Of a DNA stretch of 64,000 nucleotides, positions 8,245 to 62,993 are shown in pieces. The notes under the pieces were generated by a model, which saw only the letters and a program-made list of their open reading frames with translations, was not told the origin of the DNA and did no database searches. Every line of letters starts with the position of its first letter. Position 1 is the stretch's first letter. Position numbers and translations under genes: made by a program. The stretch spans positions 23,160-87,159 of the forward strand of contig LFCP01000001.1 in the NCBI GenBank assembly GCA_001189155.1. The letters run 5' to 3'. Origin of the DNA: Parcubacteria bacterium C7867-006. GTDB lineage: Bacteria; Patescibacteriota; Minisyncoccia; Phycocordibacterales; DATDWN01.

Positions 8245-8440
8245 AAAAAGACCGGCATGTGCCGATCGTGTGTGACTTAACTTTGCACTGACCATATGGT
8301 CAGTAACTCATAACGAACTCCTTAACCTGGTCGGGAGAAGGAGGATCAGAACCAAACGCCCGCATTGGAGGCGCGCGCGTATGGTGCTGGCCCCGCCCCC
8401 CTTCTCCCTTCCAGGTCCCGCCAATTCTTTACGATGGCGA
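8245..8440 (-). ncRNA. Candidate structured small RNA, unclassified (possibly SRP-RNA-like or 6S-like), ending in an intrinsic terminator
   Basis: About 60% GC island in a 33% GC genome with no ORF. A long-range helix CCUGG..GGGAGAAGG / CCUUCUCCC..CCAGG encloses about 60 nt. Minus strand carries tandem 3' hairpins (ACUGACCA/UGGUCAGU, CGGCA/UGCCG) followed by a U6 tract. Confidence 0.35.
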
Positions 8441-8496
8441 AATATCTACCAATATAATATATCTAAAAGTGGTTTATGTCAATTATTATAGACAAC

Positions 8497-9596: not shown

Positions 9597-9785
9597 ATGG
9601 CTAGCTTCTCAGTTTCTCTCATCGGGTCCACTAACCATATCATCGTTCACTCGTTTGTGGACGGAGACCGGATTGTGGAAATCCCAACTCGCCGCTCCAA
9701 GGAAGACTTTCTCGCTCACATCCGTTGGCTCGAACGCCACGGGCGCCGTGAAGAAGCAAGGGTGCTCCGAGAGAAGTACTCTTAA
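9597..9785 (+). CDS. Small protein (62 aa) of unknown function in GC-rich mini-cassette A
   Basis: About 55% GC versus a 33% host. GGGAGG SD 7 nt upstream of ATG. Upstream TTGACA-16-TATTAT promoter. Followed by a GC-rich terminator. Confidence 0.55.
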   Translation: MASFSVSLIGSTNHIIVHSFVDGDRIVEIPTRRSKEDFLAHIRWLERHGRREEARVLREKYS

Positions 9786-20499: not shown

Positions 20500-20604
20500 G
20501 AAAATGAGTATAGCAGAAAGTAAAGAATAGGTAAAATTGGTTTAAAAAAGAGCCCGGCAGAATTATCTACCGGGCCCTCAACTCTTCCAGTGGCCGTTCG
20601 ACCT

Positions 20605-20790
20605 CTACTGGAAACGCGATCTTCCTTCCGATGTGGTCCTCAGCCCGACGGTTTCGTCCTGGGTCGGGTTGTTTTTGGGAAGGTTGTTGTACTCGGGACA
20701 CGCCTTGCCGTGCCCTGCATTTCCATGGAAAGTCTGGTTGCACCACGGGCACTCGCGTTCCCGAGGCGGGTCCACAAAAGATCTTGGCAT
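20605..20790 (-). CDS. Small Cys/His-rich protein (61 aa, putative zinc ribbon) in GC-rich mini-cassette B
   Basis: About 60% GC. GGAGGAGGAG SD immediately upstream of ATG. CPWCNQTFHGNAGHGKAC motif. GC hairpin terminator gagggcccgg..ccgggctc followed by T6 at 20550-20590. Confidence 0.5.
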   Translation of the reverse strand: MPRSFVDPPRERECPWCNQTFHGNAGHGKACPEYNNLPKNNPTQDETVGLRTTSEGRSRFQ

Positions 20791-26029: not shown

Positions 26030-26300
26030 GAGAGGGGGCCTGTCCGAAGACAAGGCCCCCTCTGGTTTTGGTGCGGGACGTTATTAGTCCGCACCTAGGG
26101 TATAGGAATACCCTATAGCATCCAAGTCTAGATCTAAAAGACAATGATTACGACTACGGCGTGCTCTCAAGTCCCAGATGTACGTCTGTGGACGAGGCAC
26201 AGGTGACGGACTAATCATTGGTTTTGATCTAAATGAGTGTTGCGGGCACCCACTGGTGATATGGACTTGTCACCATTACGACACGGCGTCCGTCACCCCT
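26030..26300. promoter_or_regulatory. GC-rich highly structured leader/intergenic element between divergent nusA and pilB
   Basis: Hairpins AGAGGGGGCC..GGCCCCCUCU (10 bp), UAGGGUAU-AGGA-AUACCCUA and GGUGACGGAC...GUCCGUCACC (10-bp inverted repeat spanning about 75 nt). No ORF. Confidence 0.3.
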
Positions 26301-34648: not shown

Positions 34649-36391
34649 ATGTCAAAAAAGTACGCCTTGCGGGAGCCTATTCCAGAAAAGATAGATAAAT
34701 TATTTGAAGCTTATTCTCCTTTAGTCAGGTCACTTCTATACTCTAGAGGGATAGAAGATTTAGAGAATGCAGAAAGTTTTCTGAATCCAAAATACGAAAG
34801 TCTGCATAATCCTTTTCTTTTGAAAAACATGGATAAAGCGACGGAAAGAATTTTGAAAGCAATAAAAGAAAATGAAAAAATTGCCATATTCAGTGACTAT
34901 GATGCAGACGGTATTCCTGGGGGAGTAACGCTGCACGACTTTTTCAAAAAAATAGGTTACAACAATTTTATAAACTACATACCTCTCCGAAATGAAGAAG
35001 GGTTTGGACTAAACCATACAGCTATAGATAACATTGCATCACAAGATGTAAAATTGGTTATCACAATAGACTGTGGTATCACAGATGTTGAACAAGTAGA
35101 GACTGCGAACAAACATGGAATGGATGTGATCATCACCGATCACCACATTCCTGGAAAGAAACTTCCAAAAGCTTTTGCAATAATTAATCCAAAACAAAAT
35201 GGATGTGATTATCCAGAGAAAATGTTGCGTGGATCTGGAGTTGTTTTCAAAGTTATTCAGGCACTAATAATAAAAGGAAAAGAGGAAAAAGTTTTTGATT
35301 GGAAAGATGGGCAAGAGAAATGGTTTTTGGATATGGTTGGGCTTGCTACGCTTTCTGACATGGTGCCACTTTTAGGAGAGAATAGAATACTTTCATATTT
35401 TGGAATGAAAGTTTTACAGAGGACCCCGCGAGTTGGGCTTTTGAAACTATTATCCTTACTCAAGATAAACCAGGTAACACTTACAGAGGATGATATTGGT
35501 TTTATGGTTACTCCTCGTATAAATGCAGCCTCACGAATGGGTATACCACTTGATGCATTTAAACTTTTGTCTACAACAGACGAGGTTGAGGCGGGAATGC
35601 TGGCAGAACATTTGAATAATAAAAATGACGAGAGAAAAGGTGTGGTGGGGAGTATGATAAAGGAGGTTAAAAAAAGAATTGAAAATAGTGATACTGAGAT
35701 GAAGCATGTGCTCGTGTTTGGAAATCCAGAATGGAAACCGTCATTACTTGGTTTGGTTGCAAACAGTTTTGGTGATGAGCACAATCGACCAGTTTTCTTT
35801 TGGGGTAGGAATGGAGAGACAGAAGGTGATGGGATAATAAAAGGATCTTGTAGAGCTGGCGGAGATACAGATATAGTAAAACTAATGGAGAAAGCCAGTA
35901 CAATTTCTCCGGATATTTTTGTCGACTATGGGGGACACAAGGGAGCTGGAGGGTTCTCTATTTTGCAGGACAATATTCATACACTCGAAGACAGATTGAA
36001 CAAGGCTTTTGTAGAACTCTTGAATGAGCACAAAATTATAGAAGACACTCTACTAGACAAAAAGCTTTCAATCGATGACGTTAATTGGAATACATACAGC
36101 TCTGTCGAAAAGTTTGCACCATTTGGATTGGATAATCCCAAGCCACTATTTCTATTTGAAAACATAACTGTTTCGGCAATGAAATTGTTTGGTAAAGAAA
36201 AAAATCATCTAGAATTAAAATTTAAAAATTCAAATAGTAAGGATGTTACTGCAATAGCATTTTTTCAAAATGGAGACAGATTCGCTGTTCCAGTAAAAGA
36301 AGGAAGCAGTATAAATCTTGTAGCCACTTTGGAAAAATCCACTTTCCGAAACTTCCCAGAACTCCGTCTCAGAATAGTGGATGTGTTTTAG
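34649..36391 (+). CDS. recJ: Single-stranded-DNA-specific exonuclease RecJ
   Basis: DHH motifs (DYDADGI, DHH) and a DHHA1 domain; 580 aa. Confidence 0.85.
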   Translation: MSKKYALREPIPEKIDKLFEAYSPLVRSLLYSRGIEDLENAESFLNPKYESLHNPFLLKNMDKATERILKAIKENEKIAIFSDYDADGIPGGVTLHDFFKKIGYNNFINYIPLRNEEGFGLNHTAIDNIASQDVKLVITIDCGITDVEQVETANKHGMDVIITDHHIPGKKLPKAFAIINPKQNGCDYPEKMLRGSGVVFKVIQALIIKGKEEKVFDWKDGQEKWFLDMVGLATLSDMVPLLGENRILSYFGMKVLQRTPRVGLLKLLSLLKINQVTLTEDDIGFMVTPRINAASRMGIPLDAFKLLSTTDEVEAGMLAEHLNNKNDERKGVVGSMIKEVKKRIENSDTEMKHVLVFGNPEWKPSLLGLVANSFGDEHNRPVFFWGRNGETEGDGIIKGSCRAGGDTDIVKLMEKASTISPDIFVDYGGHKGAGGFSILQDNIHTLEDRLNKAFVELLNEHKIIEDTLLDKKLSIDDVNWNTYSSVEKFAPFGLDNPKPLFLFENITVSAMKLFGKEKNHLELKFKNSNSKDVTAIAFFQNGDRFAVPVKEGSSINLVATLEKSTFRNFPELRLRIVDVF

Positions 36392-36395
36392 AAAT

Positions 36396-36424
36396 TTGAC
36401 ATTAATAATATTTACTACATAATC
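36396..36424 (+). promoter_or_regulatory. Near-consensus sigma70 promoter driving cassette C
   Basis: TTGACA, 17-nt spacer, (c)ATAAT(c), directly abutting the AGGAGG SD. Confidence 0.5.
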
Positions 36425-36460
36425 AATTTCTGATCCCAATATTGGGGAAAGGAGGCCAGA

Positions 36461-36826
36461 TTGAAGGTTGTGTACACAGCGCAAATGCCATTCATGAGAG
36501 ATGGGCGTCCTGTTGGTGCGCGTTTCGAGACTGAGGATGACTTTATCCCTGATTTCGAAATGGAAATCAAGCCAACAGACGACGTAACTCTCTACGTTGA
36601 GAGTCGATCGTACAACCCGCATGACAAGTCGGTCTGCATCGAACTCACATTCCTCAACCCCTTCGATGAAGAAGACGAAGGCGCAACAGATCTCGATTCA
36701 CGAGAGCTGGCGCAGATCGAGATGGCACTCGAGCAGTTGATCGCGAATGGTTGGTTACCCATCAACGATGATGACCTCATTCGTTCTGATGGTGAGTTGC
36801 CGAAGCGCAGGGAGTCGACTCACTAA
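36461..36826 (+). CDS. Acidic protein (about 121 aa, roughly 23% Asp+Glu) of unknown function in GC-rich mini-cassette C
   Basis: AGGAGG SD 6 nt before a TTG start (alternative ATG at 36485). About 55% GC. Terminator ggtcggcac-ttcg-gtgccgacc at 36851-36880. Confidence 0.5.
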   Translation: MKVVYTAQMPFMRDGRPVGARFETEDDFIPDFEMEIKPTDDVTLYVESRSYNPHDKSVCIELTFLNPFDEEDEGATDLDSRELAQIEMALEQLIANGWLPINDDDLIRSDGELPKRRESTH

Positions 36827-36962
36827 CTCTTTCAACCTCCACCCATGAGTTCAACAAGGTCGGCACTTCGGTGCCGACCACTTTTATATAAAAATATATT
36901 CTGAAATAGTCGAAAGGCCCCGGTCAGATGACACGAGGCCTGTTCTCAGTTGACTTGAGCGT

Positions 36963-37340
36963 CTAGATACCCAAGTCGTAGCGTTCGGTTGATGGAAGAT
37001 ATTTTCTTCCCAGCCACCGAAAGATGTAGTCCACGATAGATGAGACTTCAGGGATTTCTGGGTCGTTAGTCCTCCCGTACGGCTCAAATTTCATGAAGGT
37101 GAACTTCTTCACGAACACTCGGAGCGGAACTCCTCTTTGCAAGGAAGCCGAAGTTCCCATTGCAATAGAGTTCAGAAGACCAGAGAGAGTTGAGCCCTCT
37201 TTGTTCATTCTGACAAAAATCTCACCGAGTGTACCGTCGTCATAGACGCCGGTAGTGATGATGATTTCGTGTTCTCCGTTGATCCACACTGTCCGTGTAA
37301 ACCCGGCCCTTTCTGGGGGTAGACGATTTCTTTCTGCCAT
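36963..37340 (-). CDS. Isolated C-terminal fragment (125 aa) homologous to class II (B12-dependent) ribonucleotide reductase, part of cassette C
   Basis: GEIFVRMNKEGSTLSGLLNSIAMGTSASLQRGVPLRVFVKKFTFMKFEPYGRTNDPEIPEVSSIVDYIFRWL resembles the NrdJ C-terminal region. Own GGAGG SD. About 48% GC. No N-terminal catalytic part nearby. Confidence 0.45.
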   Translation of the reverse strand: MAERNRLPPERAGFTRTVWINGEHEIIITTGVYDDGTLGEIFVRMNKEGSTLSGLLNSIAMGTSASLQRGVPLRVFVKKFTFMKFEPYGRTNDPEIPEVSSIVDYIFRWLGRKYLPSTERYDLGI

Positions 37341-37407
37341 AGCGCCTCCGGACTTGATACTACCATTGATTACAAATAAGAAAAGACTTTCTGATATAAT
37401 AAAAAAT

Positions 37408-38082
37408 ATGACAATTATATTTACTGACGGATCATCTAGAGGTAATCCTGGTCCAGGAGGGTGGGGGGCGATAGTCTTAACAGAGGATTCTGCTCATGAA
37501 CTTGGTGGTAGGGAGGATGAAACTACAAACAACAGAATGGAAATGATGGCAGTTATTTCTGCATTAGAGTTCGCAAAAAATGAAAATGATATAATTCTAT
37601 ATACTGACTCTGCATATGTACTGAACGGTGCCACTCGTTGGGTAAAAGGTTGGGAGAAAAATAATTGGAAAACTTCAACAAAGGAAGATGTTGTAAATCG
37701 TGATTTGTGGGAAAAAATAATTCCTTTAACTGTACACAAAAATATTGATTGGCAGTTGGTTAAAGGTCACAGCGGAACAGAAGGCAATGAGCGTTGTGAT
37801 GTTATAGCAACATCATTTGCAGATAATGCTCCAGTTGTTTTGTATAACGGATCACGTGAGAGATATGGTGTTGATGTAAAAATAAACCAACCGAATTCAA
37901 ATAAAAAATCTAAATCAAAGAGCAAAGCCTATTCATATGTGAGTATGGTAGATGGTGTAATTCAAACTCACAAAACTTGGGATGAGTGCAAAGCTCGTGT
38001 AAATGGTGTTGCTGGAGCAAGATATAAAAAATCTGTTTCACCTGCAGACGAAGAGGAGATTATAAAAGAATTTGCTAACTAG
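37408..38082 (+). CDS. rnhA: Ribonuclease HI with a C-terminal hybrid-binding (caulimovirus viroplasmin-like) domain
   Basis: RNase H core TDGSSRGNPGPGGWG...TNNRMEMMAV...YTDS. C-terminal YSYVSMVDGVIQTHKTWDECKARVNGVAGARYKKSVSPADEEEIIKEF matches the HBD consensus. Start taken at 37408. Confidence 0.75.
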   Translation: MTIIFTDGSSRGNPGPGGWGAIVLTEDSAHELGGREDETTNNRMEMMAVISALEFAKNENDIILYTDSAYVLNGATRWVKGWEKNNWKTSTKEDVVNRDLWEKIIPLTVHKNIDWQLVKGHSGTEGNERCDVIATSFADNAPVVLYNGSRERYGVDVKINQPNSNKKSKSKSKAYSYVSMVDGVIQTHKTWDECKARVNGVAGARYKKSVSPADEEEIIKEFAN

Positions 38083-41358: not shown

Positions 41359-41643
41359 GTGAGACACGCCAAATTTGAGCAGTATACTTTCCGGTATACT
41401 GTCCCAAGCACTGACGCACAAGGAGAGGAGACGAGGGTGAAAAGAGAGATTCCCCTCGGTTTCAAGACCAGAGAGACAGCTTTGGCGATGGTGAGGGAAT
41501 ACGCCATCAGCCTCAGCTCTGACCCGAATCTTCAAGGGTTCAAGCTCATCTGCCCAGACGATTCCGAGATCGAAATCGATGTCTCGGGGGTGGTTCGGGT
41601 GAACGAGACGGCGCTGGGGATGCTTTCCCACAGCCGGCCTTAA
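41359..41643 (+). CDS. Small protein (94 aa) of unknown function in GC-rich mini-cassette D
   Basis: AGGAGG SD 5 nt before a GTG start. About 55% GC. Upstream TTGACA-17 promoter. Terminator acgaccgg..ccggtcgt followed by a T-run at 41668-41710. Confidence 0.5.
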   Translation: MRHAKFEQYTFRYTVPSTDAQGEETRVKREIPLGFKTRETALAMVREYAISLSSDPNLQGFKLICPDDSEIEIDVSGVVRVNETALGMLSHSRP

Positions 41644-62154: not shown

Positions 62155-62288
62155 TTAGTTTTTTGTTCTGTTTCGTTACATTGAATTTGTAGAAAAGAAA
62201 AAACAGTGTTGGAATATTAAATATTTTGACACTGTTTTTTCTTTTCTATAGACTGGCATAAGAGTTGTTAAAGAGAGGAGGCGATAAG

Positions 62289-62993
62289 GTGGCAGATTGG
62301 AAAAAGAGCAAACCTAGAAGAGACTGGAATGCTCCTCCGAAGAAGTACGCAGGCCTACCACCCCCTCCAAAAGAGGCTGTGGCTAGGTATGTCGAGATGC
62401 TCGACAAAATCCCCAGACCAGGAAGGGTCATTGATTGGGGGCTTAGGGAAGGTGACCAGTTGCTCGTGAGCTGGCTTCCTCCATACGTAGCTGATGGTTC
62501 TCCACAAGGTGATATAAGAGGGTGTCAGATCGCAGTTCTGCGAGACGGCAAGTATCTTCTTTGGAGCGCTCGGCTCCTAATGAAGGACCCAACTGAAACT
62601 TACCTTTGTGCTCCATACCTAACATCCAAGAAGGATGTCGGCCACTTTGTTGATCTCATTGCGCGACTCTCCGGTTACGCTTTGCAGGTGAATGTAGAGG
62701 CTACAACATCCTTCAGGGCTGTGCTGGTGGATTCTGGTAATGAAGTTAGTCGCCGTGTGGTTCGTGGCGACGAGCTTTACTACAGCTTCGCATCCAGAAT
62801 ATTCACTGTTTCTCGCTCTCACATGACAATTGATATGAACCTTTATCATCCAACTGACTCTGGTATTATCATTGAGGCTAGGACTCCATACCTCAATGCT
62901 ATTCACCATGGTGTTGCGCTGGTGCACTTGGCCGCTGAGGTCAACGGGTTCATGCCAAAGTGTGTGGGTAACAACAAGTACGTTTGTGTGTAG
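62289..62993 (+). CDS. Protein (about 234 aa) of unknown function in GC-rich mini-cassette E, inserted between secY and adk
   Basis: About 55% GC. AGGAGG SD 7 nt before a GTG start (62289). Upstream TTGACA-17-TAGACT embedded in the secY terminator. GC hairpin terminator ggccgcgacgatgttctcgtcgcggcc at 62997-63023. Confidence 0.5.
   Translation: MADWKKSKPRRDWNAPPKKYAGLPPPPKEAVARYVEMLDKIPRPGRVIDWGLREGDQLLVSWLPPYVADGSPQGDIRGCQIAVLRDGKYLLWSARLLMKDPTETYLCAPYLTSKKDVGHFVDLIARLSGYALQVNVEATTSFRAVLVDSGNEVSRRVVRGDELYYSFASRIFTVSRSHMTIDMNLYHPTDSGIIIEARTPYLNAIHHGVALVHLAAEVNGFMPKCVGNNKYVCV

Follow-up and report, generated by a model that had tools for sequence, protein, structure and literature searches.

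Between recJ and rnhA in the genome of Parcubacteria bacterium C7867-006 (Bacteria; Patescibacteriota; Minisyncoccia; Phycocordibacterales) lies a short spacer of foreign composition that carries two small genes. One of them, open reading frame 2 (ORF2), encodes a free-standing copy of the IscU-like domain found in NrdJ, the class II (vitamin B12-dependent) ribonucleotide reductase (RNR). The other, ORF1, encodes an unrelated acidic orphan protein. We analysed this spacer within a window of 64,000 nucleotides from contig LFCP01000001.1 (assembly GCA_001189155.1, positions 23,160 to 87,159 of the forward strand); all coordinates below count from the first letter of that window. That ORF2 is an NrdJ IscU-like domain, encoded on its own and preserved by selection, is a conclusion in which we have high confidence. 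The best overall explanation is broader: the spacer would be an accessory-gene hotspot holding two unrelated cassettes, and the selected IscU-like domain would act by docking onto a reductase. We give this account as a whole a little less than an even chance.

A sequence-only reading of the same DNA had described two convergent ORFs, a 121-amino-acid (aa) protein rich in Asp and Glu and a 125-aa RNR-like piece preceded by its own GGAGG, and the ORF listing bears out each of these. Its suggestion that the two genes form a pair, and that the RNR-like piece might be decaying, fared less well, as set out below. Labels such as L072 or P0002 are our identifiers for the sequences compared.

ORF2 is the IscU-like domain of NrdJ

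Judged by profile scores, the similarity of ORF2 to class II RNRs is far beyond chance. Besides the motifs GEIF, KEGS, LQRGVPL, FEPYG and DYIFRWL, it matches the NCBIfam model for vitamin B12-dependent ribonucleotide reductase (NF005122) at E 2.3e-39, across model positions 741-862 of 960, and a second model, NF005736, at E 9.5e-34. Its sole Pfam match is TSCPD (PF12637), which scores 38.9 bits where the cut-off is 22.8 (E 1.1e-9) and extends over profile positions 13-86 of 88. Homologues sharing 40-59% identity with ORF2 are the C-terminal parts of NrdJ proteins. PHROGs returned only a weak match to an RNR large subunit, and a sequence search against the PDB returned nothing at E <= 1.

The proposed match to the C-terminal region of RNR therefore stands as a match to class II RNR, and its placement shifts: the similarity covers an internal domain ahead of the linker and zinc finger. 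When aligned with NrdJ C-termini, ORF2 starts at the RLPxER motif, exactly where viral NrdJb-like ORFs start, and stops just ahead of the linker and the CxxCGS...C..C..CG.TSGCS zinc finger that close full-length NrdJ. It is the folded domain that precedes these terminal elements, and not the extreme C-terminus of the enzyme. The protein contains no cysteine at all. Absent from it are the C-terminal redox cysteine pair and zinc finger of class II RNR, as well as the catalytic ten-stranded alpha/beta barrel with its finger-loop cysteine (Pfam Ribonuc_red_lgC). Every residue that is invariant across embedded and stand-alone copies of the domain is nonetheless present (K47, G49, S64, L67, Q68, G89, S101, D104 and Y105).

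The observation that no catalytic part lies nearby also holds, since six full-length NrdJ queries match the 64-kb window at ORF2 only. One tblastn alignment overran the ORF2 stop codon and was considered as a possible zinc-finger relic; on inspection it was noise. A complete RNR gene that could be restored by correcting a frameshift was looked for and is excluded, there being no NrdJ match in the window outside ORF2 once the overrun is discounted.

The AlphaFold2 model of ORF2 is confident (predicted local distance difference test score, pLDDT, of 93), with the order strand-strand-strand-helix-helix-strand-helix-helix. This alpha+beta fold, and the position of the sequence N-terminal to the zinc finger in NrdJ, identify ORF2 as an IscU-like domain of the NrdJ type. 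Where class II enzymes have a long C-terminus, and likewise in NrdJb of the split forms, an IscU-like domain is followed by a zinc finger, and most NrdJ copies lack the cysteines that ligate an iron-sulphur (Fe-S) cluster (Burnim et al. 2022, PMC9669993). The C-terminal region of NrdJ, including this domain, is an independent folding unit that is needed for dimer and tetramer formation, and its cysteines are needed for thioredoxin-type electron delivery (Loderer et al. 2017, PMC5704485). In the T. maritima NrdJ as crystallised, the IscU-like region had been lost through cleavage (PMC5704485).

ORF2 is homologous to the embedded NrdJ domain (PMC9669993; PF12637) at the level of identity given above, with the same boundaries and an E of 2e-39 to the NrdJ model. 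It shares the alpha+beta fold class of IscU and NifU and, like most NrdJ copies, lacks the Fe-S ligand cysteines. It differs in being encoded alone, with its own ribosome-binding site (RBS) and terminator, at a location unrelated to any RNR gene. In comparison with the IscU/NifU Fe-S scaffolds themselves, sequence similarity is undetectable and the cysteine and histidine cluster ligands are missing; Fe-S assembly is therefore not a plausible function.

Pfam describes a stand-alone TSCPD subfamily with four conserved cysteines and a C-terminal TSCPD motif. ORF2 reads SSIVD at the equivalent of that motif and has none of the four cysteines typical of these proteins. By these sequence features it belongs to an NrdJ-type, cysteine-less branch of the TSCPD family. 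A literature search on "TSCPD" returned nothing relevant.

A maintained gene with a reduced architecture

Several properties of ORF2 would suit a functionless, decaying remnant of nrdJ brought in with transferred DNA, which was one of the two alternatives raised by the sequence-only reading. It corresponds to only about 13% of an NrdJ, the island that holds it has a foreign composition, relatives carry it patchily, and its protein evolves 2-6 times faster than RecJ and RNase H, whose nonsynonymous divergences (dN) are 0.05-0.15 and 0.06-0.15, respectively. Against decay, ORF2 is intact in at least eight alleles (the window, L001, L014, L016, L027, L029, P0002 and P0003) despite saturated synonymous sites. 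In comparison with the closest allele, L072, dN is 0.16 and synonymous divergence (dS) is 1.82, giving an omega of about 0.09; other allele pairs have dN of 0.27-0.53, with dS saturated in most. The ends of the gene fall exactly on the domain boundary, it starts from its own ATG behind its own GGAGG, it retains the NrdJ-invariant residues, the fold is confidently predicted, and there is no relic similarity past the stop codon. These lines of evidence point to a maintained gene under purifying selection, and we regard decay as very improbable. The second alternative, a repurposed domain, is the fitting one, and the purifying selection on conserved residues that had been suggested as a check is indeed found across homologous cassettes.

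Homologues of ORF2 occupy the same position and orientation in other species, with identities of 76% (L072/P0002), 63% (L001), 53% (L027), 51% (L029), 48% (L016) and 47% (L014). Their divergence is not in step with that of the host. The RecJ of L014 is 92% identical to that of the window and its ORF2 only 47%, a mismatch that hints at allele replacement.

The alleles also differ in length. Those of L016, L027 and L029 (155-173 aa) carry short Cys-rich tails directly after the IscU-like domain (CHQC-x12-CIAC in L027), and those of the window, L001, L014 and L072 have no such tail. In sequence, the tails look like miniaturised remnants of the NrdJ zinc finger, and the series looks like a stepwise reduction from an NrdJb-like ancestor to the IscU-like core. 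The most likely origin of ORF2 is an NrdJb-like gene whose linker and zinc finger have been lost.

This ancestry raises the question of whether ORF2 still works as the small subunit of a split class II reductase, with the catalytic subunit encoded at some other place in the genome. Like NrdJb of the Pseudomonas aeruginosa type (Crona et al. 2015, as cited in PMC9669993; PMC5704485), ORF2 is a separate gene with the same N-terminal motif and an IscU-like domain (PMC9669993, PMC5704485). It also shares its N-terminal boundary with viral NrdJb-like ORFs, and three of its alleles keep Cys-rich tails. However, NrdJb carries a linker and a six-cysteine zinc-finger/redox region, and it is through the cysteines of this region that it delivers electrons (PMC5704485); ORF2 lacks all of these. 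NrdJb has an nrdJa gene as its partner (PMC5704485, PMC9669993), whereas ORF2 has recJ and rnhA as neighbours and no nrdJa, adjacent or otherwise, in the window. The gene is also missing from L010 and L017 (recJ 92% identical), which would be odd for a subunit of an essential enzyme. We consider a working NrdJb-like subunit improbable.

Patescibacteria alleles of ORF2 and ORF1 (window, L072, L014, L016, L029, L010 and L013) mostly have a GC content at third codon positions (GC3) of 0.5-0.7 in hosts at about 0.23, with lower values in the ORF2 alleles of L001 (0.32) and L027 (0.38). High GC3 is kept even between alleles that are more than one synonymous substitution per site apart; it is either maintained or repeatedly re-imported. 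The cause may be repeated supply from a GC-richer reservoir, gene conversion that is biased at a recombination hotspot, or selection acting on GC.

Stand-alone relatives in mobile elements

Stand-alone copies of the domain, all without a catalytic part close by, also recur in phages and other mobile elements, in modules for replication or nucleotide metabolism, and the GC content of the gene there (47-65%) equals that of its surroundings. In L006 its neighbours are a serine recombinase and an HTH_17 gene. In L007, a phage-like array that also holds RNA ligase, VRR-NUC and amidase genes, it comes directly after an N6_N4 DNA methylase, and in L008 it lies near ArdC-N and an integrase. A 47-kb Saccharopolyspora plasmid carries a copy of 149 aa beside a SAM (S-adenosylmethionine) methyltransferase (L043), annotated as "vitamin B12-dependent ribonucleotide reductase". 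On viral contigs, copies neighbour ThyX, Nudix, NADAR and ERCC4 (L058), a primase-helicase, UvrD and HNH (L061), or a methylase and DNA polymerase A (L069).

In a rough neighbour-joining tree, the stand-alone copies are scattered among the branches of full-length NrdJ, and most of the Patescibacteria alleles fall together. The scattered positions suggest repeated, independent excision of the domain. Many other short matches, on long contigs, are pieces of full-length nrdJ broken by frameshifts or inteins (for example, P0070), and P0012 probably represents an NrdJb-like protein of 210 aa in truncated form. Related phage contigs of about 40% GC (L053, L054, L056, L057, L059, L060 and L063) carry NrdJb-like ORFs of 194-255 aa that comprise the IscU-like domain, linker and zinc finger. 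In some, the frame upstream of these ORFs is open, suggesting split or interrupted phage nrdJ genes.

What ORF2 may do

With neither barrel nor cysteines, ORF2 is not expected to reduce nucleotides or to shuttle electrons. Since it keeps the residues that are conserved inside NrdJ, it most likely makes the same molecular contact as the domain makes within the enzyme. We speculate that ORF2 is a protein-protein module that docks on the body of a reductase or pairs with another IscU-like domain. Its target would be a class II reductase of the cell itself or of an invader, and docking would tune or block the oligomeric state or the re-reduction of that enzyme. This mechanism is the likeliest of those considered, but it is tentative, and we would sooner expect it to be replaced than to hold.

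A number of observations weigh against it. The fold match of ORF2 to IscU is modest, with lipoate-ligase and flavoprotein interface domains scoring equally, and a Foldseek search of the ORF2 model against the PDB found nothing significant. For the NrdJ IscU-like domain itself no role has been reported, and higher oligomerisation has been suggested (Burnim et al. 2022, PMC9669993). There is no NrdJ gene in the 64-kb window, the stretch searched, and a simple scan detected no promoter for ORF2. The gene is missing from the close relatives L010, L013, L017 and L070, and is thus dispensable. Further, the copies in mobile elements often lie beside methyltransferases (L007, L009, L043 and L069), so that a role unrelated to RNR is possible.

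Such a role might be that of a ligand-binding or adaptor domain in the DNA modification or replication of mobile elements, later captured by the hotspot. The DNA and SAM methyltransferases in the four loci just named, together with neighbouring polymerase and helicase genes, would be natural company for it; the repeated excision suggested by the tree would also fit, and the polar residues K47, Q68, E86, S101, D104 and Y105 could make a ligand site. Yet these same residues are invariant in NrdJ-embedded domains, arguing for the same molecular activity in both settings, and methyltransferases are so common in any phage early or replication module that their adjacency may mean little. We rate an RNR-unrelated role as unlikely.

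The docking proposal can be taken further. Cysteine-less, free-standing IscU-like domains might be a recurrent weapon or regulator of mobile elements, one that binds class II RNRs and so controls the supply of deoxynucleoside triphosphates (dNTPs) in phage-host conflict, and that Patescibacteria have captured into an accessory hotspot, fed by recombination, between recJ and rnhA. The GC3 of about 0.5 of the cassettes in a genome at 0.23 would be explained by repeated re-delivery from a GC-richer mobile reservoir or by biased gene conversion. We offer this extension as a long shot.

The recJ-rnhA spacer as an accessory-gene hotspot

The order recJ-rnhA-comEC is kept in most of 29 species-level loci, a few being cut short or missing one gene. 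The spacer between the first two genes is far less constant: nine related species have only 12-47 bp there, and others have 140-2520 bp with varied GC-rich cargo. Among the cargo seen outside the window are further small ORFs, an ABC transporter (L026) and a conserved noncoding unit of about 270 nt. In the window, the GC content of the spacer is 47-51%, compared with about 37% in its flanks and a mean of 36.5% for the window, and the GC3 of ORF1 and ORF2 is 0.54-0.59, compared with about 0.23 for host genes. On these comparisons, the recJ-rnhA spacer qualifies as a hotspot for accessory genes.

The ABC-transporter-like gene of L026 encodes 628 aa and lies at positions 562-2448 of a spacer that also holds the noncoding unit; the hotspot can therefore accept cargo of kilobase size. 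The GC-rich noncoding unit itself occurs in six species (L001, at about 45-395 of the spacer, and L040, L033, L027, L026 and L028). It has its own TTGACA/-10 promoter and terminator, and a core that runs from GTAGGCTAAGGGCTGGCGACCC to GGGGGATACAGCC. No Rfam family matches it, and nhmmer did not find it in the 64-kb window. It is a candidate for an unknown small RNA of Patescibacteria.

The two genes of the window are distributed independently across this site. ORF2 occurs without ORF1 in L001, L014, L016, L027, L029 and L072, and homologues of ORF1 occur without ORF2 in L010/L015, L013 and L070. Comparison with L072 shows the ORF1 cassette as a cleanly inserted block of about 514 bp, placed after the recJ stop codon and ahead of the ORF2 terminator (36390-36396; 36902-36909). 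At the insertion site, L072 reads the recJ stop TTTTAG-AAA-GTCGAAAGGCC. The pentamer GAAAT is present at both ORF1 junctions and may represent microhomology or a target duplication, although at 5 nt it is too short to interpret. Given the variable spacer and the separate occurrence of the two genes, their adjacency is specific to this genome, and by the same comparisons their pairing is accidental.

The earlier pairing of ORF1 and ORF2 consequently falls. A two-gene module, such as toxin and immunity protein or inhibitor and target, could be read into the fact that the genes are adjacent and convergent both in the window and in the independent assembly L004, and that the acidic partner superficially resembles an antitoxin or mimic. 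The conserved co-occurrence and co-transcription expected of a toxin-antitoxin or immunity module are not seen, however: in several species this site holds one gene and lacks the other, the genes converge and have separate terminators, the promoter is specific to ORF1, and ORF1 arrived as a discrete insertion relative to L072. PADLOC gave no match for ORF1, ORF2 or three other cassette ORFs of the window. We find such a module scarcely credible.

Two further candidates were rejected. An integron gene cassette, which would be a promoterless ORF with an attC site behind it in an array beside an intI integrase, does not suit a locus in which ORF1 has its own near-consensus promoter, the genes converge, the flanking genes are recJ and rnhA, and the 3' structures are only simple GC hairpins with T tracts. 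Flanking repeats are also lacking; a search for terminal repeats around the insert, direct or inverted, found none. Nor is the arrangement an assembly chimera, as it is identical in the separate assembly L004 and syntenic alleles exist in many metagenome-assembled genomes.

ORF1, an acidic orphan protein

ORF1 starts with TTG and encodes a protein with 29 Asp and Glu residues (24%), an isoelectric point of 4.2 and a net charge of -17, as its earlier description as highly acidic implied. The TTG start is supported by the N-terminal KVVYT, which is invariant in its three closest homologues and varies in the more distant P0053-P0055. The gene is under purifying selection (dN/dS about 0.11). A profile search of 1.84 billion representative proteins yielded only four related clusters at E < 1e-10, and every cluster whose context was checked sits in the recJ-rnhA hotspot. 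From these searches, ORF1 is a lineage-restricted orphan of a few Patescibacteria species. It has no family match in Pfam, NCBIfam, PHROGs or PADLOC.

The AlphaFold2 model of ORF1 (pLDDT 76) has a sheet of four strands, an acidic loop and a single long helix, and its tail is disordered. A fold search with this model gave no meaningful match, and none to any known mimic or immunity protein. Like the DNA-mimic and anti-restriction proteins Ocr and ArdA, ORF1 is small and strongly acidic, and it sits in an accessory-gene hotspot. Unlike them, it resembles no solved mimic in sequence or structure, and its predicted fold, a small beta-sheet with one helix and a disordered tail, is different. The idea that ORF1 is a DNA mimic is a guess from its charge.

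Layout of the locus

The features of the spacer and its flanking genes are collected in Table 1. ORF1 and ORF2 converge, and each has a GGAGG RBS and a terminator hairpin. The predicted terminator of ORF1 has a fold energy of -20.4 kcal/mol (z = -5.0), and the minus-strand fold of 36890-36965, downstream of ORF2, has one of -24.1 kcal/mol (z = -3.4). Homology to L014 starts at 36906. The rnhA gene begins 67 bp upstream of ORF2 on the opposite strand and is followed by a ComEC-like gene. No Rfam family was found in the locus or in the related spacers.

Table 1. Features in and around the recJ-rnhA spacer, in window coordinates.
Feature	Position	Strand	Description and basis
recJ	34649-36391		Pfam domains DHH, DHHA1 and RecJ_OB
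Whole recJ-rnhA spacer	36392-37407	none	GC-rich variable hotspot with two independent cassettes, 1016 bp
Promoter-like site of ORF1	36396-36423	+	TTGACA, 16 nt, CATAAT; 11 of 12 consensus positions; consensus match only
RBS of ORF1, GGAGG	36451-36455	+	5 nt ahead of the TTG start; read from sequence
ORF1	36461-36826	+	Acidic orphan protein, 121 aa; ORF listing, charge
Predicted intrinsic terminator of ORF1	36858-36889 (hairpin 36858-36879)	+	9-bp GC-rich stem, then T-rich tract; terminator scan
AT-rich junction of the two cassettes	36890-36908	none	Right end of the ORF1 insertion relative to L072; junction comparison with L072
Terminator-like hairpin 3' of ORF2	36915-36941	-	Fold; kept in L072
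ORF2	36963-37340	-	Free-standing NrdJ-type IscU-like (Pfam TSCPD) domain, 125 aa; no cysteines, zinc finger or catalytic barrel
RBS of ORF2, GGAGG (plus-strand cctcc)	37345-37349	-	4 nt ahead of the ATG; read from sequence
rnhA	37408-38082	+	RNase H gene

Other GC-rich elements in the window

At least four further GC-rich cassettes (47-58%) stand in AT-rich intergenic DNA of the window, at 9597-9785 (plus strand), about 20560-20790 (minus), 41359-41643 (plus) and 62265-62993 (plus). Each combines a GGAGG and a terminator hairpin with a small ORF, of 62, about 75, 94 and about 240 aa, respectively. By eye, three of them show a TTGACA-type promoter; the one at 20.6 kb does not. The ORFs of 62, 94 and about 240 aa have no significant match in Pfam, NCBIfam or PADLOC, and one weak match in PHROGs. 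These cassettes may mark more accessory hotspots of the recJ-rnhA kind.

Two GC-rich noncoding islands, at 8250-8450 and 26050-26300, contain no ORF and have no match in Rfam or by ARAGORN. The latter, on the minus strand, starts GGGGTGACGG and ends GCACCAAAACCA, and is vaguely reminiscent of a transfer-messenger RNA. Both islands may be divergent structured RNAs.

Significance

ORF2 adds a new architecture to a known domain family. Being small, cysteine-free, confidently folded by prediction and under selection, it provides a natural handle on what the IscU-like domain of NrdJ, which many class II RNRs possess (PMC9669993), binds and does. If it is true that ORF2 modulates the oligomerisation or re-reduction of a reductase, dNTP synthesis would have a trans-acting regulator of a new type. 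The locus itself is a concrete example of an accessory-gene hotspot in the ultra-small genomes of Patescibacteria, stocked with self-contained cassettes of foreign composition, and as such it bears on how reduced genomes gain and swap genes.

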